A DNA stretch of 63,520 nt, counting the filler, from Lenisia limosa (taxonomy: Eukaryota; Protista; Breviatea): assembly GCA_001655205.1 (NCBI GenBank). It is 12 parts of 12 records of this genome, joined end to end, with 100 filler letters (N's around TTAATTAATTAA, not from the genome) between each part and the next. Parts side by side here need not be neighbours in the genome. Positions count along the whole stretch, not along the records: positions 1 to 14,569 come from LPNZ01009705.1; positions 14,670 to 15,807 come from LPNZ01002136.1; positions 15,908 to 24,293 come from LPNZ01001181.1; positions 24,394 to 30,209 come from LPNZ01009124.1; positions 30,310 to 39,606 come from LPNZ01006758.1; positions 39,707 to 41,806 come from LPNZ01002491.1; positions 41,907 to 44,057 come from LPNZ01002045.1; positions 44,158 to 47,135 come from LPNZ01005589.1; 4 more parts are not named here. One strand, written 5' to 3'. The position numbers and the translations under genes are program-made. Position 1 is the first letter of the stretch; every line of letters starts with the position of its first letter. Shown here one piece after another: positions 335 to 63,041 of the stretch. Below the pieces are notes generated by a model. The model searched no databases, was not told the DNA's origin, and saw only the letters and a list, made by a program, of their open reading frames with translations.

Positions 335-3300
335 GTATCCGGGACGACCTGGGCAGAGCCTCCTGACAACGGGCATGAACTGGACTGGGAGGAGTGGGAC
401 CAGTTGTTTTGCATTGAAGTCGGCGCCAAGCCTGCCGTCGGTGAGCGGATAAGCCCTCGAATCTTAATGCTGAGAACATAAATGTTGAAAGTAGTTTTTG
501 GTTGCCTGGATAGTACCTATTTATGGTTGTAGTATAATTTGGTTACCACTATATCGGACTTATACATCTAGCTCAGAAAAAGCAAGCCGTCGTGGTGCAT
601 CTGCTCGACTCAAGAAGAGCAAATAACGTCGCGATCGGTGAGTTTTCCACTTTTTTCCAATATCTCTACAACGTGTGATGGATGGCTTCGTCCAGAGAGA
701 TAACCTCTTGTATATATGATATGTTTTATTTCTCTTGTCGACATGATTTCCATAACAGTGTCATCGCATTTGATCTATTTGTTGACTTACTCTAATAGGT
801 TTGGTCCCGTTCACAAAGCAAGGCTTCAGTTACAGCGACATCGCTAAACTGCTTCTCGAAATGCGCTTCCAAGGTAGAAGGGGTGGTACACTTGTATCAT
901 ATCATTCGTTTTTTGACGAAGAGCATCAAATGTAAGAATAATTCAGTACAAGCAAAGAAGACCCCAATTAATGTACATCGCTCTGAATTCATGAAGTCAC
1001 GTCTCCAGATATCAGCCCTGACGATTTGCTATCTCTTCTCACCATGCTGCCAACCCAGGATGAATCTGATGAAATACGCCTGTTTAATGGTGAGGGGGGG
1101 GGGGGGANNNNNNNNNNNNNNNNNNNNNNNNNNNNNNNNNNNNNNNNNNNNNNNNNNNNNNNNNNNNNNNNNNNNNNNNNNNNNNNNNNNNNNNNNNNNN
1201 NNNNNNNNNNNNNNNNNNNNACACTCTGATCGCTCATGTTTTTAACCATTGAAAGGTGTATATTGTTTTAAACATGGATTGCTTTCTATATGCAAAAAGC
1301 TGTGCACAGAGTTATTAGGCAATTGATTGGGTGAATTAATAGTATACCATAATCTAATATCTTCTGCCTGATACAACCTTATATTGTATTTCTCATTGCT
1401 ATTATTATGTGCCTTCCAATACCCTGACTACACAAGGTGATGTGACGCGTTTGGACAAAGCGGAGCAGTTCTTCCGAGCAGTGCAAGATGTACCGAGGGT
1501 CAAGGGTTGGGGGGTGTACCGAGGGTCAAGGGTTGGGGGGTGTAATGGTGGCCTGGTCAAACTGCACTGTTTTGTTTGTTTGTGATTATTTGTTAATTGG
1601 TCCTGTTTAATAAATCAGAGTTGTTGATAAATAATGCTCATTATAGACATTTAAAGATATCGTCTTAACCCCCCCCCCCCNNNNNNNNNNNNNNNNNNNN
1701 NNNNNNNNNNNNNNNNNNNNNNNNNNNNNNNNNNNNNNNNNNNNNNNNNNNNNNNNNNNNNNNNNNNNNNNNNNNNNNNNNNNNNNNNNNNNNNNNNNNN
1801 NNNNNNNNNNNNATGGACATTTCTGCCGACCTCCAGTCCCGAGCAATAGTCGTCAAAGACGCATGTGGTATGTTGGGTCCAGGGGTGGCGGTATCTCACC
1901 TATGTTGTTTTCATGTGCCCTTACCAATTTTGAGCAAGGGCATTACTCTTTTAATGTCGACACTATTAATCTAGTTCTATTTCATAAACCAAATATTGAC
2001 ATAACCCTGTATTCTTCAATAATGCTTCCAGCAACGGTCATTTCGAGTGTATCGCTTCGCAAAATCCTGTTCGCTGTTCTGCAAGTCGGCAACAAAACCA
2101 ATGCTGGTTCTCTCATGGGTAGGGCGGGGTGGGAGTGTCTCTCATGAGTGGTGGGGCAAAGTGTCACAAATACTTATATTGAGTATTGGGGAAGGACATA
2201 TAATTGGAACTGTTTTCCAACAATGAGTATACTGTGATCATATCAGCTACAATTTTAATGTCTACCCCCCCTCCCCAGGTAACGCAAAAGGCTTTCAAAT
2301 CGAGGCACTGCTTCGAATTCAAGATGTTCGGGTATGTTTGGCAAACAGCATCATTTATTTAAAAATATTGTTGATTTTACTTATTGAAGAGATGCAGCAC
2401 CACATCACCCATATGTGTCTCACAGCATTCTTTTCTCACTTCCTTTCACCCACCCCCAGGGAGTCAAGCCCCAGCTGACCCTTTTGGACTGGCTCGTGAC
2501 CCAAACCATTGACTGTGAAGAGGGGAAGGAGCTGGCTAAAGAGGTACCTGGGAGCTGGCAGATCCAAATCAGAATTTTTTGTTTACCCACCATTCCTTAA
2601 TTACATTGAGGTGAGGAAATAGTATTTCATATCTATGTTCCTCACCAGGTTGGAATGATGCAACCTTCGTGTGTTGCTAGCCAACAGAGTTGTCTTTGAA
2701 CCTTCGTGTGTTGCTAGGTTTTTGTTTACAAATTTTCCAATTTACTCCACCCTAGCTCGTTGCTCTAGAGACAGCAGCTGAGCGCAGCGGAGCAGACGAG
2801 ATCGTGAAGCTAGGGGAGGACCTACAGAAGAAGCTGGACGGCTTGGAAGACGACCTTCGTCTGTTTGAGACGACTGAGAAAGTTGAAGGAGACAAATTTG
2901 TTGAGGTCATGAAGGACTTCCTTGTATCCGCCAATACCACTGTGGGAGGGGGTCGCTTCACCCAGAATTTGATATTTTTTTGAGCTATATGTCTAAAATG
3001 CTATAATTGTACTGTTTTACATTGAGTTCATACACTTGCGCAGTCATTTTTGCTGATAATTAACTGACTTAGATGAATGACGTCATTGTGACTGTCAATG
3101 AAATGGTCCACCAGTTCAAGTATGGTGATCCTCTGCTCTAATAGTTGCTGTTCTTTTTGGCAAATTGATTTGTGTTCACGAATAATCTATGACTCCTTCC
3201 AGGGAGCTTTGTCAGTACATTGCCGAAGACCACGTTACCGCCACCCCGGAGACTGTACTGGGTGTTTTCCTCGAATTCGGCAGGAGCGTTCAACAGAGCC

Positions 3301-3509
3301 TCAGTAACCTTGAGACCGCTCGGGCCAAAGCTGCTATGGCCGAAAGGGCGGCTGTTCGTAAGGCAGAAGCTGACGCCAAGAAGAAGAAGAAAGATGCGCC
3401 ACCTTTGGAAGAGACCACCAAGGTGGATGAACAATCAGAGGACTCCCAATTGGCGGAGAACATGGCCCAAGTTTCTGTGGATACAGAAACATTAGCCTTT
3501 GACATATAG
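335..3509 (+). CDS. Formin, FH2 domain and C-terminus (5' part outside window; multi-exon, part of one exon in an N gap)
   Basis: Spliced exons read VSGTTWAEPP..LDWEEWDQLF / LLDSRRANNVAI / LLSLLTMLPTQDE / RLDKAEQFF / IVVKDAC / LRKILFAVLQVGNKTNAGSLMG / NAKGFQIEALLRI / LTLLDWLV / GDKFVEVMKDF / ELCQYIAED..PETVLGVFLEF, ending TAG at 3509. These are FH2 motifs in the correct order with GT-AG introns. Confidence 0.93.
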
Positions 3510-5330: not shown

Positions 5331-6754
5331 AGCATGTACGGGTGTCTAATGAGTGAAAAGAAATCTATTAGTTGTATCTTACGTCCGGCCGAGTTGACAT
5401 TTATTTTCAAACTTCAATTTTACTGAGCCATGGTAAATATTCCAAAATTACATCTTTATTTATGATTCAAATAATTTTCATCCAAAAAATACTCTCAATC
5501 ATATGATCAATCAATCTCAGATAATATGGTTCAAAATTTCGGAATCAATTATAACGATACCACCTGTGTAAAAATAAGGGTCAGTAGACGGGTTCTAAAC
5601 TCAAAAATATTGACCAACTCTCAAACAAAGAGATAATATTTTGGTGCTGGCAATATAAAAAGCCAAATGTGTTTTGTCCTCTATTTACAGTAATATAATC
5701 ATGAAATAACACACGAGGGTTCATCCTGTGTTATCAATGAACCAAAACGTGTTATGTTCAAGGCTTACAAAAGGAGGTGGGGAAGGTAACTGGAGTGGCC
5801 TTTCTTCCGGTGAATGTAACGGAGGCCTTGGCTTATCATCCATTCTTATCACGAGGCGGCGGTGATGAGGTACTGCTGTTATGACCAGATCTATGAGAGG
5901 AAAGGAGGGAAAGTGACGTTTTCTTTGGATCAACTTCCTTCTGCCTATTTTTTTCTTCTTTACTTCTTGACTTCTTTACTCAGTCTTTACTTCCTTAGTA
6001 AATAAGTAAATGAGAAGAATGAAGGCAGGATGGGAAAGGAAGCGGGGAGGGAGAGGAATTTTAACCATAAATATGCGCGTGAACGTTCATCCTCACGCGC
6101 TAATATTGATTGGATCTTTGCATTTTGTCTCTTTATGACTCGCTTACCTCGCGTATTTATCTAGAAACACTATGGCCAAAGTTAAGCTGAAGAAAAAGCG
6201 CTGGGTCGTCCGTGATGATAACGTGGGGATGATTGGTTGTTATGCAGCTCTTCTGTATCTTTCTCACTCATTTTAGGAAGCTGGAAGTGGCGAGGCTGTA
6301 TCAACGGTTGGTAATGGCCTATATTGACAAGTGACATTTTTTCCTCCAATCATCAGTCTTGATCTAACGTCTTCTTGGACCATCTCCTTCCCCTACATGG
6401 TCATCGTTATGGACGGGTTTGATCTTTGTAGAGCGCTGTCGGGTGCTGTAGTTTGGTTCTTTTTGTCCTAATTTGGCTGTCTTCAGCCTCGTTTGCTGCA
6501 TATTTCGGAGACCTTTTCCAACAAACGGTTAGATGAATTGAAGATGAGTCATTTGACTTAATCTTCTTTACCAATTTGTAATCTTGTTTCAATTTATTAT
6601 CAAGAACTTTCACATTCATTCATTTCTTCTTTTTTGTTAGGGTTATTTAAATTGGGGTTTTTTTTTTATCGAGTACAGAACTCCAACCACATTTAATCTA
6701 TCACCCCCCCCCCTTCCGTTTTTGTTTCATAAATTTTCCAATTTACTCGCCCAG

Positions 6755-7989
6755 CCTGACGAAGCGTCCTTACCGGCAACACGGCCCCTTTTGATTACGA
6801 ACGTTGCTGCCTCCCTGGCTGAGGATGTGGGTTGATTTCATGTAATATTGGGCCAGGTATTGTTGAAGAATGTTAACCCATATCCACAAGTGATATCCAA
6901 AAAGTGATATAATTATTATGAATGCATCCATATTTTCATTGTTTTTAAAAAACAATCCCATAAGATATTGGAAAAAGCTCGAAGAGTACCAAAAATGTAA
7001 ACAGCTATGCTTCACCATCATTATTTTGACTTCCCAAGGCGCTGTCAAGCCACACGAATGACGCTTTTGATTTGATTGACATTTCTACTGAAGTCGGAGT
7101 GAAGGAACTCGCAGATCTGGCAACCAACAAGGCAATGTTGAATAAAGCTGATGGTGATGAACGTGAACAGGGGTGTACCTGAATACTGTACTTTGTGGAT
7201 TGCAAAGTGTTTGCTACTTTCTTCCAACGCAGTGTTATCTTTCACACTTCAGTGACATCTTCGGTCACACTGTCCAAGTTTGCTGATTCCTACTACTCCA
7301 ACACTTACACTTATCGATGTGATGACTCGCTATCTGACCATTACACGGTTGGCAGGTGTATTGAGTAACGCCTGATACATCTGGAATACTCGAAACCTGA
7401 GAAGACACAGCTTTAGTCATTGGAAATCAGGATATACATGTATGTGCTCTTGAATTGGTTTAGCTTGCTACATCCCTCACCTCTCAGTCCATTTTTGTTG
7501 CCCTGGAAGGCGATACCCCCACCGATGCTTCACCCCATTTGGAGGCTCTAATCATCCGTCTCAAGTTCGAAAATAACAGTAAGGGGAATAATTTGGCGGC
7601 CGCAGTGTACCGTACATCTGACTCCAACAGCTGCCCTCCCCGTGATTATTGCGGGGTCAGACCCCCACATTCTGCCCTCCCATGACATTGTGTCCTATAT
7701 TGGCAGCGACTTGCTGGGTGGCGATTCGTTAGTGCCTGAAGATACGTTCATCAAGTCTGCTCTGACCTTCGTGGGGCCACCGCTTGCCGACGCTGCAGAG
7801 GGCAAAGAGATTCGAGTCAACTTTCCTATTACTCCAATGGGTGGGTTGGGGCTTACAATCGCAAAAGGATGTTTTGTTTCTATTTAGTTAACATTTGGTC
7901 TTAACGTGGCAGGTGCCTTCTTCTCAAATGTGAACTTCTCCACTCCTTTCGCGCCCAAATCCTTTGCAAAGTCTGTCGCATGCCTTTGA
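6755..7989 (+). CDS. Hypothetical protein, 3' exons (beta-rich C-terminal region; family not recognised)
   Basis: Consecutive AG/GT-bounded open exons (PDEASLPATRPLLITNVAASLAED; ALSSHTNDAFDLIDISTEVGVKELADL; SIFVALEGDTPTDASPHLEALIIRLKFENNSKG; GAFFSNVNFSTPFAPKSFAKSVACL*). Confidence 0.5.
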
Positions 7990-8565
7990 GTTTTGTCTTT
8001 CGTTTATATCAAATAACCCTTGATGCGATGCTTCAGAAGCGAGGGTTTTGTTTGTCTATTTGTTTTATCTCTTGTGTGTTCACAGTGTTGATTCGGGGGT
8101 CCCAGCATTCACACATCATGACCATACTCAGGGCGGATACCAGTGTCTATAGGCCGTTCCTCTACAACACAGTGGTGTACCTTGAAAACGGTTGGGGGTA
8201 TTCGATTGAGTTGGCTTCTTCTTATTTCATACTGATTTGTGTTCATGAGCATTACTTTTTTTTATGTGGCAGTTTTCATCGTTATTATTAGAAAACCGCT
8301 TTCCCCTTCTGCAATACGGTACGGCGGTGAGGGAGCACCTCTTGTGGCACGTTGCTGCACCGGCTAAGGCTGANNNNNNNNNNGGAGGACAGTATTATTG
8401 TTACATTTTCATCATTTTTTTTTTTGATTAATTTAAATGATGAAACCCCAAGATACTTACCCCTTTTACAAGTGTAGTCTGCCGATTCAAGTCTCTGGGA
8501 AAGTCTGATTCTTGCCCCTCTGCTGCACCCCTCCGATCCCGAGGTGGGGGGGGGGNNNNNNNNNN

Positions 8566-9262
8566 TATTCACTTACCTCTCCGCCTATCTCACCTTCTCG
8601 TCCGTTGATCCGACGGTTAGCACGTACCGCCCATCTAAAATCGCGGGACTGGCCGCGTATCTTTCTGCACGCAAAGCCCGGGTACCGTTTTCTGGCGAAG
8701 TTCTCTCGTCAGTTCTCGAGATATCTCTTGTGGGAGGGGTGGGGTCTTTGGCTTCTGAGAAAAACCTGTTTTTTTTGGGGAGATATGTTATGTTCGCTGG
8801 AGTGATGGGATGTGGTGCTGCAGAAGCGACTGGTCTGGGCTTTGTTTGTTTTGCTGCTATCAACCCTCGTGTGCTGTCAGCCAACAGAGATGATCTGGGG
8901 TTTTTGTTTCTTAAATTTACCACTTTCTTTATCCCCCCCACCTCAGCACCACCTCTTGTGCTTTTCTTATTTTCTTCCCTTACATTTGTCCACTTTTCCT
9001 CACGTTGTTCTTGAGTTGGGCTGGGACTTCTTTTTTGGTTTCATAAATGTTCCATTATTACCTCCACCCCCGCCATTATATCTGAAGGTATTCTACATCT
9101 TAGATAACATAGTTTTGGTTTATTTCCTTTTCCTTGTCACGAAATACTGATTACGATTTACCACCCTTTTTTTTTGAGCCCTCTTCAACTTTACTCTTTC
9201 AGGAGGATTTCAACATGTCCGTACAGCACTTTGATCAAACTATCACCCCGCTTCTTGCTTTG
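8566..9262 (+). CDS. Cyclin, C-terminal cyclin-box fragment
   Basis: YLSAYLTFSSVDPTVSTYRPSKIAGLAAYLSARK matches the Y-x-PS-x-IA-x-AA motif of the second cyclin fold. The next exon is probably 9203-9262 (EDFNMSVQHFDQTITPLLAL). Flanked by small N gaps. Confidence 0.6.
8811..8946 (+). mobile_element. IE-A intron 3'-cassette, near-complete copy (cyclin intron)
   Basis: GGTGCTGCAGAAGCGACTGGTCTGGGCTTTGTTTG..ATCAACCCTCGTGTGCTGTCAGCCAACAGAG..C-run..CAG, near-identical to copies in unrelated genes. Confidence 0.8.
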
Positions 9263-14514: not shown

Positions 14515-14569
14515 GTGGGGGGAGGGGGCTGTTCCAGTTTTCATTTCTCTTTTTTTTTTGGGGGGGGGG

Positions 14570-14669: not shown

Positions 14670-14781
14670 GCAGAAGCGACTGGCCTAGGCTTTGTTTGTT
14701 TTGTTGTTTTCAAGTATATTACTAGCCAAGTGACTTGGGCTTTTTTTAATTACATAAATTTTCCAATTTTACCCCCTTTAG
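14670..14781 (+). mobile_element. IE-A intron 3'-cassette ending at acceptor AG
   Basis: GCAGAAGCGACTGGCCTAGGCTTTGTTTG...CATAAATTTTCCAATTTTACCCCCTTTAG|exon. Confidence 0.8.
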
Positions 14782-15807
14782 CTACCCCAGCCCCTATTCT
14801 TGGAAATGAGCCGTTTCGATGCGAATGCGGCGCCGCAGTCACTGGTCCAGATGACGTATACGTGGGAGGGGGTGTAGTATCGTATCTGCAGGGCTTCACT
14901 TCGGTTCGAAAAAAGACTGAATTTCTCGATAAATTCTTGAAAACTATCGATATTTTAGCAGACTTTTTCGAAATGAAGTGAAGCCCTAATTATAAGGAGG
15001 TATTATATAAAACAACAACAATCTATATCAGTTTGATATATTATTTGGAAGGTGATGAATATGCGTTTCTCTGTGTTTTTATTAGTTCACGAATTTTTCA
15101 TTTTTACTCCCCCCTTCTTTTGCGGTACTGCAGAAGCGACTGGCCTGGGTTTGTTTTGTTGTTATCCCAACAGAGTTAATTTTGGGTTCATAAATTTTCC
15201 AATTTTACACCCCAAGGTTCCCACTAATGGTGACGCTCCTCTCTTTACATGCCCTTTTTGCCAAGTCAAATCCCCGGTTTGTTACAGCATTTTTGTTCGT
15301 TTCTTTGTCTTTTTCCACATGCTAGCCAATAGTGTTGGAGCTGGGGAGTAAAATGAAGGAAATTACGCCAAAGAATATTGAGTTTGGGGTTTTTTTTTTT
15401 TAGTTTTGCACCCCCCCCCCCCNNNNNNNNNNNNNNNNNNNNNNNNNNNNNNNNNNNNNNNNNNNNNNNNNNNNNNNNNNNNNNNNNNNNNNNNNNNNNN
15501 AGTACAATATTCCTGGGCTAATTTCCTTTGTTTTGCTCCCCAGCTCCCAGCTCCCAGCATTATAACTTTACTATATGATATATGATATATATGATATACT
15601 GTATATGCAGAAGCGACTGGCGGCTTTGTTTGTTTGGTTGTTATCAACCTTCGTGTGTTGTCAGCCAACAGAATTGACTTTGGCTTTTTTTTGTTTCATA
15701 AATTTTCCAGTTTTACTCCCCCCCCCCAGCTCCCAGACGACATCGCTATTCCGTCTGGTCCGTCCGATTACGTAATCACTGCTCCTCCTCTCAGCGATCC
15801 CGTGAGA
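14782..15807 (+). CDS. Fragment with a Sec23/Sec24-type zinc finger
   Basis: Exons 14782-14861, 15217-15264 and 15730-15807 read GNEPFRCECGAAVTGPDDVY|VPTNGDAPLFTCPFCQ|LPDDIAIPSGPSDYVITAPP: CxC...CPFC spacing followed by a DY-V-I motif. Confidence 0.5.
14891..14986. mobile_element. MITE-A, 96 bp, intronic
   Basis: GGGCTTCACTTCGGTTCGAAAAAAGAC...CGAAATGAAGTGAAGCCC-TA. Confidence 0.88.
15122..15216 (+). mobile_element. IE-A intron 3'-cassette (internally shortened) ending at acceptor AG
   Basis: GCGGTACTGCAGAAGCGACTGGCCTGGG...CCAACAGAGTTAATTTTGGG.TTCATAAATTTTCCAATTTTACACCCCAAG|exon. Confidence 0.8.
15606..15729 (+). mobile_element. IE-A intron 3'-cassette, near-consensus copy ending at acceptor AG
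   Basis: TGCAGAAGCGACTGG..ATCAACCTTCGTGTGTTGTCAGCCAACAGAATTGACTTTGGC..GTTTCATAAATTTTCCAGTTTTACT(C)nAG|exon. Confidence 0.85.
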
Positions 15808-24176: not shown

Positions 24177-24504
24177 GTAATGATCGTACGTACCATCATT
24201 ATATCATATGATATATTATACATATCATATACTATACTATATGCGTCCGTTCAAAATTCCGGTTTTTTTGCCAATTCCGGTTTTTAGACAATCNNNNNNN
24301 NNNNNNNNNNNNNNNNNNNNNNNNNNNNNNNNNNNNNTTAATTAATTAANNNNNNNNNNNNNNNNNNNNNNNNNNNNNNNNNNNNNNNNNNNNATCTCGT
24401 TACGAAGTACTAAGAAGACTGCCAAGCGCAAAATGAACCATTTCGACGCACTTAGAGAATCGGGAGTGGGTCAAATGCTCGTAGACTCCTCTCCATTGTT
24501 ACTT

Positions 24505-24747
24505 TTAGCATTACGGTCCCAAAGCGACCGAATCTCCCGATAAATCCTCGATCAATATCGGTGCATAACCCGGATTTTTCGGACCGTAGGGAAGCATTGG
24601 TATTCCTCCAATGTTTTTTTGAAGCAGAACGAAATCAAAATAACAACCTCACTATCGGAACTAGGCCTTGACTTCAGTTCGAAAAAGACTGATAAAATAT
24701 CGATATTTATCGAAGATTTTTTTTTTTTCAAAACCAAAGTGAAGCCC
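24505..24747. mobile_element. Adjacent MITE-B (~24505-24597) and MITE-A (24664-24747) copies
   Basis: TACGGTCCC...GGACCGTAGGGAAGC, then GGCCTTGACTTCAGTTCG...AAAGTGAAGCCC. Both carry the shared TCGA-rich core. Confidence 0.7.
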
Positions 24748-25434: not shown

Positions 25435-28400
25435 TTAGAGCTGAGGCAGGCCGGTACCAACTTCTGACTCAATGCCACACTAGGGGGGGGGGGGGNNNNN
25501 NNNNNNNNNNNNNNNNNNNNNNNNNNNNNNNNNNNNNNNNNNNNNNNNNNNNNNNNNNNNNNNNNNNNNNNNNNNNNNNNNNNNNNAACAAACAAAAAGC
25601 CCAAAATCAACTCTGTTCTGATAACACATGTGTTAATAAAACAAAGAGGGGAAAGGATTGTTTTTTAAAAAAAGAGGCAAATTCACAGGGGATTGGTGAT
25701 GCTTGTTACTACCCCAAATACTTCAAACACCACCCCCACCCCCAATACCTCGTTAGTGCCTCTTCTGATGCGGAAAAAGCCCTTCTCGCCCCATCCGCTA
25801 CCCCAGCTAAAGTGGTCAAATGAGAATCATATTATATACTGTATAATTATATGGTACCAGGATTTTCCTATGGATTAGGGGGACTGCTTTTGACTACTTC
25901 TGACCAAAATTTATGAATTTGGGGTTCGTTAAGATACGTAATGAATCTGGTTTAGCGGCCTGCTTTAAGAGCAATTTTCACCCCCCCCCCCCACTATTAT
26001 TATCATCACCCCTCTCCCCACGAGTTAGCGATCTTCCAGTACTTCACGCCCTTTTCTTCGCCCCATCCGACAAGCTTGACTGCGTGGCCGCCTGCAATAG
26101 ATTCAGTGGAAGTAACGGGGGGGGGGGGGGNNNNNNNNNNNNNNNNNNNNNNNNNNNNNNNNNNNNNNNNNNNNNNNNNNNNNNNNNNNNNNNNNNNNNN
26201 NNNNNNNNNNNNNNNNNNNNNNNNNNNNNNNNNNNNNNNNNNNNNNNNNNNNNNNNNNNNNNNNNNNNNNNNNNNNNNNNNNNNNNNNATATTGATGTAA
26301 AGGTACTAATCACGAACTGAATAATCTGAAACTCCAAACAAAAAAACAAAAAAAACAAGAAATAACAAACATCGAGGGTGGGGGGCAGATATGATATATT
26401 ATATAGTATAAGGTATGTACACATAGTATACGTGCATGTACATATTACATAAATTTTCCAATTGTATCCCCCCCTCCCTAACCCTGCATTGAGTTCGAGG
26501 TTCTCTTGTAGATTCCACCACCATAGCTCTGGAGCAATTAAAAAAGGGTGCGGTGAAATAAAAGAAAAGGGTGCCAACATAGCTCAAGAAAAATACAAAA
26601 AGCTCAGGCACCACTCCACTCTTCTTGTTCATATTTATACCACTTTTATCACTTTTAGCACTTTATATTTTTAACTACAGACGCTGCNNNNNNNNNNNNN
26701 NNNNNNNNNNNNNNNNNNNNNNNNNNNNNNNNNNNNNNNNNNNNNNNNNNNNNNNNNNNNNNNNNNNNNNNNNNNNNNNNNNNNNNNNNNNNNNNNNNNN
26801 NNNNNNNNNNNNNNNNNNNNNNNNNNNNNNNNNNNNNNNNNNNNNCGGCCTAAATGATGAAACAATGTAGGATTTGGGATAATTGAATAAATAATCAAAG
26901 AATTCAGCCTAAATGGTGAATCAATACAGGATTTAGAATAACTTATCAAATATTCTATGATTTGGGATTATTGTTCAAAGGAAAGGTATCCCTCCGCCAA
27001 CCTTGATTGCTTCCTCCTCCCAGCCTGGCGTGTAGACTTCACTATACTTGTGGAGCTTGCACGAAGTTTCACCACAGCCAGCCGAGCACTTGGAGGAGGG
27101 AATTCCATTCTCGTGGAGGAAAAAGTGCACAAAGTCCACGAAGCCTCCGTTGCATCTGGACAGAGTAACAAGCAAGTGTTTTTGTTCCGAATTAGCAGGT
27201 GTTTTTGTACTTGGCCAAATTTGCTTGGTGACTTACTCAAATTTCTTGACCCCAATTCCCCCATTTTTTAAGAATTCGTATTTACAAATTCAAGTCAGTG
27301 ACTTAGCAGTTGTTGATTTTGTAATGTTGGGCTTGGGGGGGGGGGGGNNNNNNNNNNNNNNNNNNNNNNNNNNNNNNNNNNNNNNNNNNNNNNNNNNNNN
27401 NNNNNNNNNNNNNNNNNNNNNNNNNNNNNNNNNNNNNNNNNNNNNNNNAAGATACTGGGGGTTGAGGAAGTCCTGGTGTGTGCCGTTAGTGGCAATGCAG
27501 AAACGATCGGAGATAGATTCGGCTGCTCCGAAGGCCCTGAAGGGGGGGAGGGGTAAAATGGGAGAATTTAAAAAAGGGGGATTAAAATGAAGGCCTTGGA
27601 AAAGTGATAAAGGGCCTGAATTATACAATAACCCTCCCAACCAGCAAGAGCCGCAACTGCCTTGGTTATGGATGCCGTTGATGAGACCAGCGCATTGGGG
27701 CCACTGCTCGGCCGAATCAAAATGGGCCAGATCGCTGGCAGCCTGAAGGGGAGGAGGGAGTGAAATTGGTTTATGAAACAAAAAAAGCCTAAAGTCAACT
27801 CTGTTGGCTGATAACACACAGGGGTTGAGAACAACAAAACAAACAAAGCTCAGGCCAGTCGTGGGTAAGTGCAGTAAAAAATATAAAACTCTGGGTAAAA
27901 GGGGGGGGGGTGCCGTTATAGAGTTTTAGTCGTTTTCTTTACATGGTATATAAATGACCATGGAGACTGTGTGGTCACCCAATTAAAAGTAATCCTGTAC
28001 AACCCATCCTCCGTGATATATAGAGATGAAAGAACAAAGTTGTATCTGGCCGAAGCCTTTCACATTATCGCACTTATGAAAGATATTGGATTATACTATC
28101 TGGCCGAAGGTTATGAATGAGCTACTAAATAGAAAGTAATAATTAGGGCTTCACTTCGGTTCAAAACAAGACTGAATTTCTTGATAAACCGAAGCGAAGC
28201 CTTAGTAACCGAAGAGAAGCCTTAGTAATAATGGGATTGATAACCCCCCACAGAAAGGTTAGATCTAGTAGATCTGCGAACGGGAAGATTGCGAGCACCC
28301 TTCCACCCAAGCATCTGTCGAATCTCGCCCATAGTCTTTCCCTCAAATTGAGGATAGGCCACTGAGGGGGGGGGGGGGNNNNNNNNNNNNNNNNNNNNNN

Positions 28401-30309: not shown

Positions 30310-30777
30310 ATCCCCTCCGACCAAACCTTCACTCTTCACTTCATGGACTTCACACCTGCTCTCTCCGCCGCCGAAGTTCGCTACACTGACACCATTGACC
30401 ACTTCAAACGCTCCGTGCCAGTGAACGGCATTTGTGGTACGGGGGGTATTGGAGGAGCGTGTTTATTTAGATAAAGAGGAGGTTTATAGTTGCCGTGAAA
30501 TAATTTTAACTCCCTCTCCCGCAGAGTTGATTTTGGGCTTCTTAGTTTTTTTGCTTCTCATAACTTTTTCTAATTTACCCCCNNNNNNNNNNNNNNNNNN
30601 NNNNNNNNNNNNNNNNNNNNNNNNNNNNNNNNNNNNNNNNNNNNNNNNNNNNNNNNNNNNNNNNNNNNNNNNNCGCGTAGTGCTCAAGGGAGAGGAGATA
30701 ATTGAGAACGAACAGTTAACTTTCGCTGATCTCAACATCGGCAAAGACGATATGCTACGGTGCATGTTTGTTGACAA
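30310..30777 (+). CDS. Fragment with a ubiquitin-like domain
   Basis: Exon RVVLKGEEIIENEQLTFADLNIGKDDMLRCMFVDK resembles the C-terminal half of a Ubl fold (l..kG..l.d..TladlnI..dd.l). An upstream exon lies at 30310-~30437. Confidence 0.5.
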
Positions 30778-30821
30778 GTATGACAGTTAATGGTATGCTG
30801 GGGTGTTATTGGCTAAAGCTA

Positions 30822-31014: not shown

Positions 31015-31060
31015 TAGTTCCGGTGCATGTTTGTTGACAAGTATGACAATTAATAGAAGG

Positions 31061-31182
31061 GTGCGGTGCTATCGTGTGTGATCAGCCAACAGGGTTGATT
31101 TGGGCTTTTCTGTTTCATAACTTTTCCAATTTCACCATAATTTTTTTCCGGTGGTGGGACTCTTTAAAGCCCCCCCCCCCCC
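31061..31182 (+). mobile_element. IE-A cassette variant (internal deletion, 3' extension)
   Basis: GTGCGGTGCT|ATCGTGTGTGATCAGCCAACAGGGTTGATTTGGGC..GTTTCATAACTTTTCCAATTTCACC..CGGTGGTGGGACTCTTTAAAG(C)n then gap. Confidence 0.75.
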
Positions 31183-45403: not shown

Positions 45404-47135
45404 ATGGCGTTCGATCCGGTAAGTCATGCTTAAACAACAAATCGAGGACCTAACACCGTAGAAAATCCGCAAAGGAGAAATCTTTGAGCTCCACCAGCTC
45501 CTCCGCAACGTAAGCGGTCCTCTTGGTTCCACTTAGCTTATCTTCATAGCCAGAGGTGATTAAAGACAAGAGTCGCTATCAGAATGTGGTTATTAGCGTT
45601 ATCTCCTCGATGACAAAAGGAGTTGACGTGTCCCCTCTTTTCTCAGATATGATCATGGTGAGAGACGGCTTTGCCCATTTTTATTATATTGCCTTATTAA
45701 TTAGCATGAATAGTGACGTGGTCCTTTGAAAAGAATCTAGTTTACCTGGATTATTCTCTCAGCTTGTTACAAAGGTTTTCAACTTATGGGGAATCCAAGC
45801 ATTCAATAAATATTTCTCAACACAAACAAACTTGGCCAAATAATGCCAATAAATTATATGTGATAAACCACTTAAAGTGAAAAATAGACCTTATCATACG
45901 TATTTCAAAAAGAGCACATTGTTGCTGGATTGTCTTTTGGATACATTGTCCTTCGAACCGACACCCCCCCCCCCCCNNNNNNNNNNNNNNNNNNNNNNNN
46001 NNNNNNNNNNNNNNNNNNNNNNNNNNNNNNNNNNNNNNNNNNNNNNNNNNNNNNNNNNNNNNNNNNNNNNNNNNNNNNNNNNNNNNNNNTGGGCTTTTTA
46101 TTTTTTTATTTTTTTCAATTTTTTACTCCCGCCACAGGCTACCCAAACCAGCAACGTGGTACAGAAGAAGATGGTTTACATGTATCTTGCCAACCAGGCA
46201 CAGAGGAATCCACAGCTTGCTATTTTGGGTGGGATAACAGAGTTGATTTTTTACCCGCTTTTTGCTTTGATGAGATACGGTGCTGCAGAAGCGACTGGCC
46301 TGCGCTTTGTTTGTTTTGTTGTTCTCAACCCTCGTGTGTTGTCAGCCAACAGAGTTTATTTTGGACTTTTTTGTTTCATAAATTGTCCATTTTTACTTTG
46401 ATTGAGCGGTGGTGGGACTCTTCAAAGGCTGGCTAGGGCTTGTTTTTGTTTTTGTGGTTTTTGTTATCTGGCTTTTGTTTAGTTTTAGCGTTGTTATTGC
46501 TTGTGTTTTTGTTTTTTTGTTAGTTTGGAGCTTCAGATTATTCGGTTCGTGATTTTGCGCCAATATTCTTCATCGNNNNNNNNNNNNNNNNNNNNNNNNN
46601 NNNNNNNNNNNNNNNNNNNNNNNNNNNNNNNNNNNNNNNNNNNNNNNNNNNNNNNNNNNNNNNNNNNNNNNNNNNNNNNNNNNNNNNNNNNNNNNNNNNN
46701 NNNNNNNNNNNATGAAGGCAATTGCTATTCGCTCCCTCACGTCTTTCAAGTAGGGCAAATAATTTGAGACATATTTTAAAAGAATCAACTCCAGACAGCC
46801 ACTTTATTTCAAATTTTGTGATATTGTATAATATATCTGACAGAAAACAGGATTATATTGTTAAATCTATCACACCTGAGGGTGATATTTTCATGCTTGT
46901 GCCAACAGAGGATTATATTGTTATGCTTGAAACAATAGAAGGATATACTATTATATCTGTTACAGGTTACATTGTGAAATGAAAGTGTGTGATATGATTA
47001 TGGATCTACAGGAGTATTATTTGCTAAATTTAGAAATGTAATATTTTTAAGAATGCACGGAGTCATAATAACAATACTTTTTAACCCCCCAGTGTGACAG
47101 GAATGGAAGAGTACCTCCCCCAACCCCTCCACGCT
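45404..47135 (+). CDS. AP4B1: Adaptor complex beta subunit, AP-4 beta-like, 5' part (truncated)
   Basis: DKSRYQNVVISVISSMTKGVDVSPLFSDMIM|ATQTSNVVQKKMVYMYL..NPQLAIL, KAIAIRSLTSFK, GMEEYLPQPL. The 'RY.NV' and 'VQKK' features fit AP-4 beta better than AP-1/2 beta. Confidence 0.82.
46278..46427 (+). mobile_element. IE-A cassette, near-consensus, with 3' extension (AP-4 beta intron)
   Basis: CGGTGCTGCAGAAGCGACTGGCCTGCGCTTTGTTTGTTTTGTTGTTCTCAACCCTCGTGTGTTGTCAGCCAACAGAG..GTTTCATAAATTGTCCATTTTTAC..CGGTGGTGGGACTCTTCAAAG. Confidence 0.85.
46523..46575 (+). mobile_element. IE-B intron 3'-cassette (second family), cut by gap
   Basis: GTTTGGAGCTTCAGATTATTCGGTTCGTGATT is shared with 26308-26339 (minus). 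GCGCCAATATTCTTCATCG is shared with 50571-50590. Confidence 0.65.
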
Positions 47136-49610
47136 NNNNNNNNNNNNNNNNNNNNNNNNNNNNNNNNNNNNNNNNNNNNTTAATTAATTAANNNNNNNNN
47201 NNNNNNNNNNNNNNNNNNNNNNNNNNNNNNNNNNNCTCGGGAAGCTCTGGTGTCAAGATTCAGAACCTCGCAGAAGGCCGAGTGGGGGGCTTGGCAAAAG
47301 GGGAAGATGGTGGTTGTGTTCATGCTGTCTGGTCTGATGCAGCACAAACCAGCGTATTGCTTTGAATATTTATAACAAATATGGGTCTGTTATTCTGTAC
47401 TGTTCCAATCGACTGTTTTCTTTCTCTGAGTCGCCAACGAGGATATTATGATATTGAAAATCAGTTTTGTAAAAACTGGTAACATAAATTCGAACTTTGA
47501 TGACGAAAAATATATTCATACTCTGATGTAATCTCCCACAGCACTTTGACGAGTGACGTCGCTGGCCAAATCGACCGCGGAATACGCGACAAGGANNNNN
47601 NNNNNNNNNNNNNNNNNNNNNNNNNNNNNNNNNNNNNNNNNNNNNNNNNNNNNNNNNNNNNNNNNNNNNNNNNNNNNNNNNNNNNNNNNNNNNNNNNNNN
47701 NNNNNNNNNNNNNNNNNNNNNNNNNNNNNNNNNNNNNNNNNNNNNNNNNNNNNNNNAACAACAGGCAAATTCGCTTACCTTCCAGTCTGACCATTGTCAA
47801 TGTCACGGAAAAGCTGCGCGAACACACGGGTGACGAGCTCACTTTCAGAGGTGTGTGATGTTGTTGCGTTCTGTTTAGAGTCACAGAGGACCAATTGGGA
47901 TATTTCTGACACTTAAAGCGATGGTGTGGGCCTCTCTCTCTCTCTCTCCCAGCACTTATTATTTCATAAATTGTTTCATTCACCCCCCNNNNNNNNNNNN
48001 NNNNNNNNNNNNNNNNNNNNNNNNNNNNNNNNNNNNNNNNNNNNNNNNNNNNNNNNNNNNNNNNNNNNNNNNNNNNNNNNNNNNNNNNNNNNNNNNNNNN
48101 NNNNNNNNNNNNNNNNNNNNNNNNNNNNNNNNNNNNNNNNNNNNNNNNNNNNNNNNNNNNNNNNNNNNNNNNNNNNNNNNNNNNNNNNAATCATCAGATT
48201 TTTGCTTTAATGGAATTTCCGTCAGAATACACGACGAATAAGGGTCATAGGCATTCCGGGGTTTTCCCGGAATTTCCATGGCCCAAAGCCACAGTGTCGC
48301 TTTCAAATAATCTCTGTCAAGCTCACCGATTCCATTCCCCTTACCCCCTCAGACGAAGACGCCTCCAAATGTCATCCCCACGAAGTTAGCCCCGTCCTCC
48401 CTCCGAAGTTTGGTGTAAACCCCCAAAATGTTGAATGGGGTTAGTTGTCGTTATTTTGTCTTTGAATTGCCGTGTGTTGATGGTTGTTTTGTATCTTTGA
48501 AGCTGGTCCTGAAATATATTTCTTATGATGTACTTTTAACAAATTGATGAGAGGGCAGCGTTGCTGGCGATCTTCCTGAGCCCTTTAGCTGGGGACTGAG
48601 GGTACTCAAATCGAGCAAGTGCTCGAGGGCATTCATATTGAACGGTCACATGGTTCCTTGTATGGTAGGCCTGAGGGGGGTGAGGACATTGTAATAAATC
48701 CCAAAAGGGTCAGACATAATTATAATAAATCCCAAAAGGGTCAGCCATAATCATTATAATTGAGAGGTAAATGTCGGATGTAATCGGTCTGAGCGACCGG
48801 TGCCAGGAACTTCACTTCATCCACATCATACCCAATTCCTTTATGATTGCATCTATCCCCCTCCGCAACAGAGTTTTTTTTTCTTTGTTTCATAAATTTT
48901 CCAATTTTACTCCCCCCCCCTCGCCTGTATCAATAACTCAAAATAAAACATCACTTTAAAGCAGGCCGCTAAACCAGATTCATTACGTAATCTTAACCGA
49001 GCCCCAAATCCATCAATTTTGGTCAACTAACCATAAACTATACCCCAAATCTATGAAAAAATCCTTACACTCCGACGATGTTTTATTCTTGTTTAGCGGC
49101 CTGCTAAAATCTTCCCCCAGGTTTGGTCCTTTTTTTTTTACATGTAGTAAATCNNNNNNNNNNNNNNNNNNNNNNNNNNNNNNNNNNNNNNNNNNNNTTA
49201 ATTAATTAANNNNNNNNNNNNNNNNNNNNNNNNNNNNNNNNNNNNNNNNNNNNCCCCCCCCCCTAATAGTATACATCTCTATCTAAGCCCAATACGGTGC
49301 TGCAGAAGCGACGTTGTTTTTATTGTTTTCAACCCTTGAACGGGATAAGTCTTGACCGATTTTCTAAGGGAAATCACATAGCAAATTTATCAAAGAACGT
49401 TTTTCTTACCAAAAGAGTTGATTTTGGGTTTCCATTTTACCCCTCGTGTGTTGTTAGCCAACAGAGTTGATTNNNNNNNNNNNNNNNNNNNNNNNNNNNN
49501 NNNNNNNNNNNNNNNNNNNNNNNNNNNNNNNNNNNNNNNNNNNNNNNNNNNNNNNNNNNNNNNNNNNNNNNNNNNNNNNNNNNNNNNNNNNNNNNNNNNN
49601 NNNNNNNNNN

Positions 49611-51133
49611 GCCAATTCCGCCCTTGCCGCTCTCGTTGCCGCCGCCGGAAGGAGTCTCATGAACTCGGGCCGTATTCTCTACATCGGAGCGGACACTGCC
49701 GGCGTTATTGGTGGGGGGTTGTAGCATACAATTATTTATGCATGTATGTACTATATACATGTACTATATCCTATGTATATCCTATGTATATATCATATGC
49801 ATATTGTATACATTTACGAAATGTCCTTCGTTTTACTCACTAGGCTTTTTTGTTTCATAAATTTTCAAATGTTACTCTCCCAGGCTTGGTAGATGCTTCA
49901 GAATGTCCACCCACGTACGGGGCCGGACTAATGGACGTCCACGGCTATGTTATTGGCGGCTATGAGGCGCTGCAGAGTTCTGACGGTTTCGAGGGGTTTA
50001 CCAGGGAAAATGCTTCGCTTTCGGTTTCAAAGAATAATCAGAGACTCATTTATTTCTTGGGTTATTACGTGCCCCTAGATATTNNNNNNNNNNNNNNNNN
50101 NNNNNNNNNNNNNNNNNNNNNNNNNNNNNNNNNNNNNNNNNNNNNNNNNNNNNNNNNNNNNATTTTATTTTGATAGCAAAATGTACATTAGATACAATAT
50201 CATATAATCTGGGATCAAAATAAAACAATAGTGCTTCACTTCGGTTCGAGACCACAATGATTCAGTTAGTTCTGACGATTTAGGCGATATTTCTTCTCGA
50301 GGTGGTCCTTGGGAAGTGGGCGTGGTCTGTCTCTCTCTTTTTTTCTTCTTTATCTTTTCTCCTTTGGGATGCGGTGCTGCAGAAGCGGCTTGGCCTTTAT
50401 TTTTTTTTGTTGTTTTTAACCCTTGTGTGTTTCCCAAATGCTGTCCAACGAGTTGTTCTTGTTTGTTTTTGTTTCATTAGTTCTTCCTCCCTCCCCCATC
50501 GTTTTTGTCTAGTTTATGCGTTGGTTGCTCGTGTTTGTATTGCTTGTTTTTTTTTTTGGTTGTTATCTTTACGCCAGTGTTCTTCATCGAAATTTCCTTC
50601 ATTTTACCCCCCCCCCCCCTNNNNNNNNNNNNNNNNNNNNNNNNNNNNNNNNNNNNNNNNNNNNNNNNNNNNNNNNNNNNNNNNNNNNNNNNNNNNNNNN
50701 NNNNNNNNNNNNNNNNNNNNNNNNNNNNNNNNNNNNNNNNNNNNNNNNNNNNNNNNNNNNNNNNNNNNNNNNTGTTGCGGGGCCTCAGCTTGTGCTTCAC
50801 TTCGGTTCGAAAAAAGACTGAATCTCGATAAATCTTTGAAAGCTACCGATATTTTACTGGTCTTTTCGGAACCGAAGTGAAGCCCTTTACACCCCTTTCA
50901 CCATATTCTTATTTCTCTTACAACCACAGGGGATACTCGCAAGCAGGTTGTCTCCTATCTCAATAAAGTAAGGGGAATGAAAGAGGAAGGCTCAGCCTGA
51001 CGGGATGTATTTGTATAATACTTAAACTGAGATTTCTCGAAAACTATCGATATTTCACATATACTTCAGGCCAAAGCAGCCGGTACTCAGACCACCTGTA
51101 TCTCCGTTTGCAAGGACCCTCTTTCTATAGATG
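49611..51133 (+). CDS. MurQ/glucokinase-regulatory-protein-like SIS-domain protein (internal fragment)
   Basis: Exons 49611-49710 and 49884 onward read [63 protein letters not shown](Y/F)G is the MurQ signature, and 'GA...DV.G..IG' matches the GCKR second SIS domain. Confidence 0.85.
50792..50885. mobile_element. MITE-A copy
   Basis: GTGCTTCACTTCGGTTCGAAAAAAGAC...GTCTTTTCGGAACCGAAGTGAAGCCC. Confidence 0.85.
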
Positions 51134-51570: not shown

Positions 51571-51648
51571 CAGTGGCCGGGATAAGTCTTGACCGATTTT
51601 CCTTGGAAAATCACGTAGCAAGTCGGTTAGGACTTATCCCGGTCACTG
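51571..51648. mobile_element. Tc1/mariner-type MITE, 78 bp, TA TSD (other copies ~30135-30207, ~49341-49397, 60061-60136)
   Basis: TA-CAGTGGCCGGGATAAGTCTTGACCGATTT...AAGTCGGTTAGGACTTATCCCGGTCACTG-TA. CAGTG termini with a TA duplication are the Tc1/mariner hallmark. Confidence 0.88.
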
Positions 51649-52013: not shown

Positions 52014-53579
52014 ACTTTGCTCTCACGCGCAGCCAGCGACGACAACGCTCGAGCCGAGCGCCTGCAGGAAACTGTCAAGGTGGAAGGGGGGGATGGAATA
52101 GAAACTGGTTAAATGTACGTCATGTGAATTTCCCCCGTACAAAATAACGCCCTAGGAAAGGGATGCGGATGTAGCACGACTGCAACAAGCTGTGGTAGGA
52201 GGACAGGCCAATACCTGGGGTTTCCCTACGGTCCCAAAAAAGACCAAATATCTCGATAAATCCTCGATAAATATCGATATTTTCACGGTCCCCCCCCCTC
52301 CTAATTTGTCTTGATGTAATACGTTATACTATCCACGCTCACTCGCGCAATACTGTTTGTTGTTTATGATCAGGGCTTCCCTTGGGTCCTAAAAAACCGT
52401 TAAAATATCGCCATTAATCGAGGATTTATTGAGTTGTTGATTTGGGTTTTTTTGTTTCACTAGTTTTCCAATTTTACCCCCCCCCCTCCCCCCAGACAAG
52501 TCTAGCAGACGATTTGTCTCAGAGCTCAGCTGAAATTTCCGCACTTTCTAAGAACAATGACGAGGCTAATAAAAGGGCGGAAATGCACAGTCGCGACGCC
52601 CGTCTTGCCTTCCAAGTGGGGGGGGGTATCCTGAGGGCTTCACTTCGGTTCGAAAAGAGACTGAATTTCGCGATAAATCCTCGAAAACTATCGATATTTT
52701 AACTGTGTTTTTCAAACCGAAGTGAAACCCTTGGTATACATATCTTTAAGGGTAGAGGTTAATGTATTAAGAGTAATTATACAAAAAAAAAAAAAGGAGG
52801 TGGGTGGNNNNNNNNNNNNNNNNNNNNNNNNNNNNNNNNNNNNNNNNNNNNNNNNNNNNNNNNNNNNNNNNNNNNNNNNNNNNNNNNNNNNNNNNNNNNN
52901 NNNNNNNNNNNNNNNNNNNNNNNNNNNNNNNNATGGCCGCGGATGTGGAGAGGTGGTCACGTGACCTGTCGGAACTGCAAAATGCGGAGGCAAGGGCTGT
53001 GGCTCGGATCAGAGATCTGGAAATGGAGGTGAAGGGAGGGGGCTATTAAAGATGCGGTGTAACTAGGGCTTCCCTACGGTCCGAAAAAACAGGTACAATA
53101 GCAATATTATCGAGGTTTTAACGAGGGATTCTGTCTTTTTTTTAGGACCGTAGGGAAGCCCTAGATATAATAACTCGTGGCTACATGGTATTTGCGCTGG
53201 TTTATTTTTGTGGAGGGAAGTTTATGTTGATGCAGCTTTTATTATTATTATTATTGGGCACTGTGGAAGTAGTGTGGTCATGTGGAAGCGACTGGACTGG
53301 TTTGTTGTTATCAACCGTCGTGTGTTACCAGCCAACAGAGTTGATTTTGGGCTTCTTTTTTTTTTTCATAAAATTTCCTTTTTTACTCCACCCCCCCCCC
53401 CCCNNNNNNNNNNNNNNNNNNNNNNNNNNNNNNNNNNNNNNNNNNNNNNNNNNNNNNNNNNNNNNNNNNNNNNNNNNNNNNNNNNNNNNNNNNNNNNNNN
53501 NNNNNCTAATGAGGAGGGAGCGCGCGCGGACGCAATTCAGGCGCGCGAGGAGTACGCGAATCGCGCCAGGGAGGCCGAG
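52014..53579 (+). CDS. Coiled-coil protein, internal exons
   Basis: Four phase-0 exons rich in A/E/R with heptad character (e.g. MAADVERWSRDLSELQNAEARAVARIRDLEME; NEEGARADAIQAREEYANRAREAE). Confidence 0.65.
52635..52730. mobile_element. MITE-A, 96 bp, just inside a GT+G-run intron start
   Basis: GGGCTTCACTTCGGTTCGAAAAGAGAC...TTCAAACCGAAGTGAAACCC. Confidence 0.88.
53066..53161. mobile_element. MITE-B subfamily, 96 bp, TA-flanked
   Basis: TA-GGGCTTCCCTACGGTCCGAAAAAA...TTTTTTAGGACCGTAGGGAAGCCC-TA; the TIR differs from MITE-A at matching positions in both arms. Confidence 0.88.
53281..53403 (+). mobile_element. IE-A intron 3'-cassette (coiled-coil gene intron)
   Basis: GAAGCGACTGG..ATCAACCGTCGTGTGTTACCAGCCAACAGAGTTGATTTTGGGCTT..TTCATAAAATTTCC..TTACTCCA(C)n then gap. 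Confidence 0.82.
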
Positions 53580-61500: not shown

Positions 61501-63041
61501 ATGGACACCCATACTCTTTTGGCTGATGATGTACAACCATCTCCAAAATGTCTTTTTTTAAGAAGTAAAACTATGAAAATTATTTGATAATAAATAAAAT
61601 CTAGAGATATAAGAAAAATATGTAATTGGGATATCATTTTGCGGCGCACTGCTTCTAGCACCCCCCCCCCCCNNNNNNNNNNNNNNNNNNNNNNNNNNNN
61701 NNNNNNNNNNNNNNNNNNNNNNNNNNNNNNNNNNNNNNNNNNNNNATTTAGGTTCGTGTTATCAGAGACCACACTGCTATTTACGTGGATAGGAAAAAGA
61801 TTCTGAGAAACACGTGGGTGGCCTTATTTGATAATGATGTCTTTTTGTTTGAGCATACACACGGCGCATCTACTTGGGTCGTCCAATGTGGTATTTGGGA
61901 ATCCTTTTGAATTCTTCGAATTTTCATAAAAATTACATGGGATTCCCATGTAAATAATGGGAATCACAACTTTTTCATAAGAATCCCAAGTCGATGCGCC
62001 GTAGTAAATGCCAATCCTGTACTATGAGGTAAAGTTGTAAGGCAAAAGATTAGGTGACTTAATACTACATAATATAATAATACAATATCTCTTATAAGCG
62101 TGATGGTGTAGAAAGCCTTGGCCAGATACAACCTTGTTTTAGATGCACTATTCTACTCATCATATTATATGATATACTTTATCATATAATATATTAAACT
62201 CTGCTATCAAACATTGGTAGGGGTTTTTTTGCCCATTTTTTTAACAAAACAGTCAGCAATCTCTTGATGCCTTCAAATTTGACTGGAAACTCTCAATCAA
62301 GGTGGGGGTGTGGGGTGTTTGCTTTCACCTGTTGTATTATCCTCAGGTGTTTTTATTGATTTTTTTTTTCTTTTTTTGCTAATCATGTAGAGTCAATTCC
62401 AGCGTAACCCTTTGTCCTTCGTGTAAGCACAGGGAGTAGGGGTGTTTCTTCTTCTGTTCTGTGGGTATCGTATTTTTAAAAATACCAGTATTTATGTTAT
62501 ATAAAACAATAATTGAAAAGTTAAATTGTTTTTTCTGTTGGCAAGATACATCTCATGCTTGTGTTAGGCACTACTTGTATCGATATGATTATGACAAACA
62601 GTTAGGGCTTCATAATGTTCTCAAAAAAGAGTGAATTTTTCGATAACACTTTCGGTCTTTTTCAGGCCGCAGGGAAGCCCTTCAAACAGTGTCTCATTTT
62701 GTAGACTGGGAGTGACCATTGTTTTCGGTCTCATGGGATCCCATATGATTTACGTCCTTGAAAGGTGGGAGCCTTTTTTAGTGTTTCCCCCATTCTTCTC
62801 AGGTATTCTGTTTTGTCTTTTCAGCTGTGCTGCAGAAGGGACTATCTTAAGCTTTTTTTTGTTTTGTTGTTTTTGACCCTGTGTGTTACCCGAATGCTGA
62901 GCCAACAGACTTGATTTTTGGTTTATTGTTTCGTAAATGTTCCATTATTACTCACCCCCCCCCCCACAGAGAATGGAATCCTGATTTCCTCGACTATCCA
63001 AGTACCCTCTGGTTTTCAGCCGTTGCTATGACCACTATCGG
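58515..63041 (+). CDS. SK/KCNN-like 6TM potassium channel (3' end beyond window)
   Basis: S1 LLIFSSLAVLLMVIL|LEV; S2 IKGLISFVTFIQLILVHYYY; S3 LLEMFIVLLHTPP; S4 LIWARLYIL|VRVIRDH; FKFDWKLSIK|SQFQRNPL; S5 ending YVLER; pore LWFSAVAMTTIG. These follow the KCNN pattern (LEL...HP.P; RLYL..R; CER). Whether the 5'-most exons belong to this gene is less certain. Confidence 0.8.
61858..62004. mobile_element. MITE-C, ~147 bp, with internal palindromes
   Basis: ACGGCGCATCTACTTGGG (61861-61878) pairs with CCCAAGTCGATGCGCCGT (61985-62002), one mismatch, with TA outside both ends. The right end recurs at ~34607-34632. Confidence 0.7.
62827..62969 (+). mobile_element. IE-A intron 3'-cassette, diverged copy ending at acceptor AG (K+ channel intron)
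   Basis: GTGCTGCAGAAGGGACT..GACCCCTGTGTGTTACC..GCCAACAGACTTGATTTTTGG..GTTTCGTAAATGTTCCATTATTACTCA(C)nACAG|exon. Confidence 0.75.

Follow-up and report, generated by a model that had tools for sequence, protein, structure and literature searches.

Introners occur in many sense copies in the introns of unrelated genes and carry a splice signal. In the available text of Gozashti et al. (2025, PMC12130899), they are recognized by similarity that reaches both intron boundaries, and secondary insertions in pre-existing introns are removed. Here we describe a short repeat, family A, in DNA of Lenisia limosa (assembly GCA_001655205.1; the whole stretch of 63,520 nucleotides (nt) is called the window). 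It too has many copies in sense in introns of unrelated genes and carries a splice signal, but it differs from introners, and from the DNA-transposon type of Huff et al. (as presented in PMC12403724), in that its similarity does not reach the 5' intron end and in that it has neither terminal inverted repeats (TIRs) nor a general target duplication. Since the published screen, as its accessible text describes it, drops secondary insertions, a class like family A would escape it.

The introner elements of Micromonas (Verhelst et al. 2013, PMC3879977) resemble family A in being sense-only, in having partial copies in pre-existing introns, and in being nested or merged. In the available parts of that paper, however, whole-intron copies predominate, such remnants being secondary to them, few by comparison and devoid of splice signals, whereas in family A nesting is the usual state and the 3' splice signal has been retained and is in use. 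Like family A, the introner-like elements of fungi and sister stwintrons (PMC4457414, PMC12403724) are shorter than 200 nt, non-coding and without transposon hallmarks. RNA-based spread has been proposed for the introner class without TIRs (PMC10996645) and for other short introners lacking transposon features (PMC12403724, PMC3879977), as it is here for family A, but in the text available from these sources the proposal concerns whole introns. The fungal elements and the TIR-less class are there whole introns at new positions, often structured, while family A sits at existing acceptors and has no conserved fold. In the literature covered, to which most subscription papers and supplements do not belong, no description was found of repeat families rebuilding intron 3' ends. 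Parallels of another kind are offered by non-long-terminal-repeat (non-LTR) retrotransposons that target repeats and by exonized short interspersed elements (SINEs), such as antisense Alu copies that become acceptors: these show priming on simple sequence, head-to-tail arrays and a donated acceptor. By comparison, no poly-A tail, tRNA head or coding partner is seen with family A, its orientation is sense, and the outcome is a moved constitutive acceptor rather than a new exon.

The window consists of 12 intron-rich eukaryotic scaffolds joined through 11 linkers of the form N44-TTAATTAATTAA-N44, with 58,611 called bases. All data on copy number and position come from it, from two sequencing runs of one study (DNA run X1 and RNA run X2), and from contigs of assembly G001. 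The latter is a prokaryote assembly with stray eukaryotic contigs that bear spliced genes and the same repeats (L008-L011, L023, L037; L numbers denote its contigs); they are contamination, from the window's organism or a close one. An exact 23-mer of the repeat has one locus in the genome contig collection, in G001, and scans with the repeat pattern found none in the metagenomes of JGI and none in viral contigs. As for close relatives, an RPS2 comparison gave none above 76% identity among the 120 best matches listed, and a search for homologs of the short cathepsin B and adaptin exons found none.

The first-pass annotation of the window had proposed a dispersed cassette, and the cassette is real. 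A profile built from 14 window copies, which themselves match by construction, finds 33 matches at E<=10, and 22 of these exceed 7.9 bits, the top score over 10 local shuffles (the reversed window reaches 4.7). Among the 22 coordinates first listed, 19 were recovered: all 11 near-complete copies and 8 of 11 partial ones. The other three fell short, 31275 with only 1.5 bits and 46090 and 47960 missed by the profile; the last two have only the T-rich tail, and 46097 and 31274 belong to repeat family D13. The 31061 copy spans only model positions 59-127. Absent from the first list were a copy at 8022 (15 bits) and, at 26445-26480, a weak fragment in antisense. Of the 12 scaffolds, 9 carry copies, in agreement with the original "most". 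In 58 small contigs of G001, 11 matches above 7.9 bits were found in 5 contigs; one that overlaps a remnant of a miniature inverted-repeat transposable element (MITE) beside another match was dropped, leaving 10 extra copies.

Summed contig depth at 8854 in X1 is 215,416, while the single-copy contigs listed have 21-39. Depth summed in this way does not give a copy number, but together with about 20 loci per 59 kb it indicates that family A is likely present in thousands of copies genome-wide. The copies lie 2-18% from the consensus, with insertions and deletions; the best pair is 93.8% identical and the median is 84.5% (105 pairs among 17 copies, a sample of the likely thousands in which a young subfamily could be missed). 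Two copies, one at 49292 and one in L008, have since been interrupted by inverted-repeat elements. The idea of an active or recent family thus finds no support in the copies at hand.

Where a host gene could be inferred, 28 of 29 copies are in sense, as had been claimed (hand count; binomial p 1e-7). A probable antisense copy lies in a long intron of L023 (3168), and one copy, at L010 1451, has no assignable host gene. None of the 22 window matches above 7.9 bits lies outside an inferred intron. Acceptors were mostly inferred from reading frames, with boundaries used only where GT..AG was present. Among 20 copies with a flank and an acceptor, 13 end 7-18 nt before the AG and two end 27-30 nt before it, where the profile stops early.

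RNA confirms the use of two acceptors in the cathepsin B gene. Run X2 splices it at 27743 (joint 27741/28251), directly behind an A copy, and at 25480, behind an A copy and a gap. A third case is supported in the formin gene, where an RNA contig piece starts at 2754 and runs on, consistent with an acceptor at 2755, though the joint itself is unlisted. The absence of RNA cover over 6805-8262 carries no information. Ending exactly at the AG, noted earlier for many copies, is true of most; the exceptions are 8811, 9016, 48867, 46278, 31061 and 50371. Three of these (46278, 31061, 50371) continue into a second repeat. Those at 8811 and 9016 probably both lie inside a single intron of 473 nt (8730-9202), which splices in frame without the AG behind the full-length copy, and the RNA depth seems to leave no space for a mapped exon inside it. 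An 11-nt micro-exon behind the 8811 copy was considered and rejected; it shifts the frame, whereas direct splicing stays in frame.

The identity of the host genes is variously secure. Cathepsin B is supported by PDB; Pfam matches to formin, adaptin and a GKRP/MurQ-like protein are weak and lie in single exons (FH2, E 0.0024), and the cyclin, zinc finger and K+ channel are putative. The MurQ-like exons flanking 49812-49883 are contiguous on GKRP_SIS_2 (positions 6-34 and 38-66). In L009, two consecutive introns appear to end in such repeats; their host may be a galactokinase, judging from a weak PDB match (E 1.3) and a motif. The MurQ/GKRP-like SIS-domain gene (49611-49990) has introns in this protist and was possibly transferred from bacteria. 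If it is bacterial in origin, then its introns were gained in this lineage.

Could family A nonetheless be an introner, as was first considered? In all 20 introns with a hand-set donor, 18-390 nt precede the main copy, so similarity fails to reach the 5' intron end. The 5' parts are unrelated to one another, a difference from classic introners that the first-pass annotation had itself pointed out: in 171 pairwise comparisons, scores above those of shuffles are due solely to a shared MITE. Judged from this sequence anatomy, family A probably makes introns that already exist longer and does not give rise to new ones.

The unit is non-coding and about 140 nt long, running from about GCTGGAGTGATGGGATG to TTTTAC, after which comes a C-tract; T-runs occur within its sense strand. 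In X1, 31 contigs continue from the A tail into TACT and a long C-run, and 31 leave the window upstream of 8795 into unrelated flank (agreement 0.44). The consensus of that flank is C-rich (10 C of 30, against 2 and 4 for MITE flanks), and many contig joints link an A tail to an A head. TTTTAC fits the motif YTNAY, which lies 5-25 nt before the AG in repeat-free introns. Of the intron ends compared, such a motif is present in 15 of 16 with the repeat and in 24 of 26 without it, and TTTTAC is probably the branch point. TIRs of the introner type, which had been expected, are not there: end-to-end inverted scores are 8-11, versus 38 for the resident MITE. Folding gave no conserved structure (0 consensus pairs; z 0.61), and the window holds no Rfam match at gathering score and no tRNA. 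No copy shows the tRNA, 5S or 7SL head with an internal Pol III promoter that marks SINEs. Among fragments, 12 have only the 3' part and 3 only the 5' part (hand count, p 0.035), some of them arising from internal deletions.

A second repeat, family B, follows A at 46405 and 50483. Further copies of it lie at 26289-26357, in L009 and in L037, the L037 copy having C10-AG at its end, ahead of an exon. It acts like A, lying in sense at intron 3' ends. Since homology between the two is weak (p 0.02-0.07), they are counted as separate families. Two degraded intron ends, 15063-15114 and L011 2929-2995 (-), are alike and both resemble the A tail; perhaps they represent a third, older family. At L008 5490-5503, the exon behind a full copy starts with CCGCTGGAGGATGG, a near-match to the repeat's 5' leader, which may be the exonized head of a further copy or may be due to chance.

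At two loci, family A appears to have replaced an older splice acceptor. At 15501-15558, the A copy that precedes the inferred acceptor has upstream of it the 3' end of a B copy, complete with AG, and then the 7 bases with which today's exon starts (similarity to one B copy p 0.0005, to another 0.08). The same arrangement is found at 49812-49846 with the first 4 bases of the exon (9.6 bits to a B profile of which 49812 is not part). These replacements of B by A bear out the acceptor-replacing option raised at the outset. Copies of A also stack head to tail, and at L008 5347 a full copy comes right after the TTTTAC of an older one.

The A tail is found at 11 of 43 C-tracts followed by AG but at only 3 of 54 complements of donor-like G-runs (p 0.008), counts that refer to motif classes rather than to curated introns. 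Among the three donor-class tails, the motif rule had put two sense copies in the wrong class; the third is truly antisense, the fragment at 26445. Targeting of C-runs without regard to strand is disfavored by this asymmetry. More generally, many host introns have a donor followed by a G-run and many an acceptor behind a C-run; the two are complementary in many window introns and may pair, bridging the intron ends. Assembly gaps often border long G/C runs, and RNA contigs show exon sequence hidden inside gaps. Exon ends are at times duplicated in the following intron, as at 30759-30793 and 31021-31055 (35 nt) and at L009 283-345 (19-nt tandem units), which suggests frequent local duplication at donors.

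What might account for these observations? Our tentative explanation, which we put at somewhat below an even chance, is that A and its sibling B were copied into existing introns at the C-rich acceptor tract, likely via RNA, supplying the branch point and at times the acceptor. The unit ends in TTTTAC, a match to YTNAY, followed by a C-tract. Its RNA, ending in a C-run and AG like an excised intron, would pair with the template-strand G-run at a nicked acceptor, and reverse transcription from that primer would write a sense copy just upstream of the C-tract. Priming at the acceptor C-tract would account for the sense orientation, the position and the head-to-tail stacks. Were the second break to fall a few bases inside the exon, the previous AG together with the beginning of the exon would be left upstream while the new acceptor took over, as may have happened at the two replaced loci. 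Later deletions and transposon insertions would wear down the 5' part, with selection keeping the branch point end.

Several points weigh against this explanation. Neither a reverse transcriptase nor a free unit RNA was seen (neither was searched for), and DNA-templated copying would give the same anatomy. In five of the 20 cases, copy and acceptor are 60-275 nt apart, once with a gap between them. Duplication of the acceptor is not general: among acceptor-spanning duplications, the only kind examined, two of 20 copies have at least 6 nt (13 nt and 6 nt; permutation p 0.11-0.24). Acceptor-like or C-rich tracts upstream of copies are only borderline enriched (12 of 29, against about 3 of 22 control introns whose ends were hand-set and partly imprecise; p 0.06). 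Several seemingly 5'-truncated copies (2649, 31050) keep a 5' remnant and are thus internal deletions, not 5' truncations. Finally, 2 of 19 introns carry a piece of A no more than 17 nt from the donor, the kind of trace expected from a whole-intron element after erosion.

One might dispense with RNA altogether. If breaks at G/C homopolymers were repaired with a copy of the sequence that adjoins another C-run in the genome, then a few intron ends could spread by positive feedback with no mobile element as such. Such repair, which we think unlikely, would fit the anchoring at C-tracts, the long C/G runs bordering many assembly gaps, the antisense fragments beside G-runs (26445, 15341), the A-B composites at three loci, and local duplications at splice sites (31021-31055, L009 294-345). 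It does not sit well with the common 5' edge, with unrelated flanks, seen in 31 contigs and among the copies compared, and the strong preference for acceptor over donor tracts would need extra selection. Or perhaps A and B are old true introners, once running from GT to AG, whose introns later grew by MITEs, duplication and nested copies. Nested or merged copies and remnants in conserved introns are described in the available text on Micromonas (PMC3879977). Here the fullest copy (L008 99) begins with GTATG and a purine-rich run like host donors (compare 30793), and A fragments lie on the donor side at 46229 and L008 5081 (exact matches of 15 and 12 nt, equalled in 0 of 300 shuffles), so that an older whole-intron phase is conceivable. 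We nevertheless doubt that it explains the family: none of 20 introns consists of the repeat alone, and the copies that follow 18-390 nt of unrelated 5' sequence have diverged by only 2-9% from the consensus, too little decay to erase a 5' end.

The position of the copies could also be the work of selection, an ordinary short repeat without choice of target surviving only where it is harmless or useful, at intron 3' ends. Some copies are indeed internal or without an AG (8811, 9016, 48867, L010 1451), the probable antisense copy in L023 lies in a long intron, and 3'-only fragments exceed 5'-only ones. But a sense unit with branch point, C-tract and AG should be the most harmful kind, so selection alone would predict an excess of antisense copies, the opposite of what is found, and no match above threshold falls outside an inferred intron; we consider this account improbable. 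A multicopy functional RNA encoded in introns, like a small nucleolar RNA (snoRNA), seems very improbable. The sense orientation near 3' splice sites would suit it, and we take a TGATG(A) motif near the 5' end of A to recall a C box; the structure, Rfam and tRNA results and the frequent deletions in copies speak against it.

Table 1. Copies and fragments of families A and B in the window, with their splice context.
Position	Strand	Feature	Splice context or RNA support
2649..2755	+	A copy with internal deletion; 5' remnant directly behind relic acceptor-like CCTCACCAG (2640-2660)	Ends at AG of formin intron 2544-2755; RNA piece from 2754
6718..6754	+	A 3' fragment	Between upstream C-run and inferred acceptor
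8022..8105	+	Degraded A copy without 3' tail	7 nt before inferred acceptor
8796..8946	+	Full-length A with a C-tract and AG of its own, probably unused	Internal to intron 8730-9202
9013..9072	+	A 3' fragment	141 nt upstream of inferred acceptor 9202
14670..14781	+	A copy; 5' end is scaffold edge	Ends at inferred acceptor
15063..15216	+	Older degraded tail and C-run (15063-15114), then head to tail A (15121-15208)	Inferred acceptor
15341..15384	-	Antisense B 3' end with own CCCCAG, within degraded sense A copy 15295-15422	
15501..15729	+	Relic B acceptor with start of exon duplicated (15501-15558; duplication of 13 nt), then AT-rich filler, A copy (15605-15717) and C-run	Inferred acceptor
25480..25638	-	A copy into assembly gap, then C13-TAG	Acceptor of cathepsin B intron; RNA joint 25479/25749
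26289..26357	-	Sense copy of family B	In cathepsin B intron 26092-26482
26445..26480	+	Antisense 3' fragment of A, weak (2.6 bits; D7, D12)	Right behind donor G-run, intron 26092-26482
27743..27861	-	A copy; relic C10-TTTTACCCAG about 30 nt upstream	Ends at RNA-confirmed cathepsin B acceptor
30522..30582	+	A 3' half directly behind acceptor-like tract	C-run into gap
31050..31182	+	Internally deleted A and head of B; 35-nt duplicate of upstream exon end before	C-run into gap
46090..46137	+	A-like tail only (D13)	Before inferred acceptor of adaptin-beta intron
46236..46575	+	A fragment, full A (46268-46397), B (46405-46575)	A fragment 7 nt past donor; B into gap
47958..47988	+	A-like tail behind acceptor-like tract; weak	C-run into gap
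48866..48922	+	A 3' half and C-run	AG absent within 45 nt
49292..49472	+	A copy split by fragment of other repeat, then second partial copy	
49812..49883	+	Relic B acceptor ACTAG/GCTT, then A tail	CCCAG/GCTT acceptor, MurQ/GKRP-like gene
50366..50619	+	A copy, then 5'-truncated B	C-run into gap
52436..52495	+	A 3' fragment abutting MITE	Before inferred acceptor
53271..53403	+	Long A copy	C-run into gap
62823..62969	+	Long A copy; acceptor-like tract 20 nt upstream	Before inferred acceptor

Other repeats share these introns. A palindromic MITE-like repeat of about 110 nt with inverted ends (14890-14990, 30820-31017, 52634-52732, 63204-63306 and others) often lies 20-40 nt behind a donor and is the source of sub-threshold Rfam microRNA matches. 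A second MITE-like family has CAGTG...CACTG ends (51571-51648; L008 595-670) and fragments at 30135-30209, 49340-49395 and 60064-60125, one of which splits the 49292 copy. Larger elements with inverted ends contain a putative transposase-like reading frame: L009 about 860-2635, inside an intron; L008 1418-3755, splitting an A copy; and L010 230-1130. RNA contigs also outline two convergent spliced genes about 60 nt apart, at 24466-25318 (+) and 25379-30098 (-).

The copying of A and B to acceptors may be part of a wider phenomenon. Spliceosomal intron RNAs may be selfish elements that home to 3' splice sites, with families B, A and perhaps an older one repeatedly replacing the branch point and acceptor, a proposal we advance with still more hesitation than the copying itself. 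Introner screens treat repeats that do not span whole introns as passengers, yet here one appears to make up working 3' ends in many introns, such as two of cathepsin B confirmed by RNA, and fossils of replaced acceptors adjoin working ones. If the proposal is true, selfish intron RNAs would be a route by which introns grow and splice sites are replaced across the genome, a process separate from intron gain and lost to introner screens. And should the RNA route prove right, the insertions, thousands of them and datable, would allow the writing back of spliceosomal intron RNA into genomes, an old question, to be tested in a single organism.

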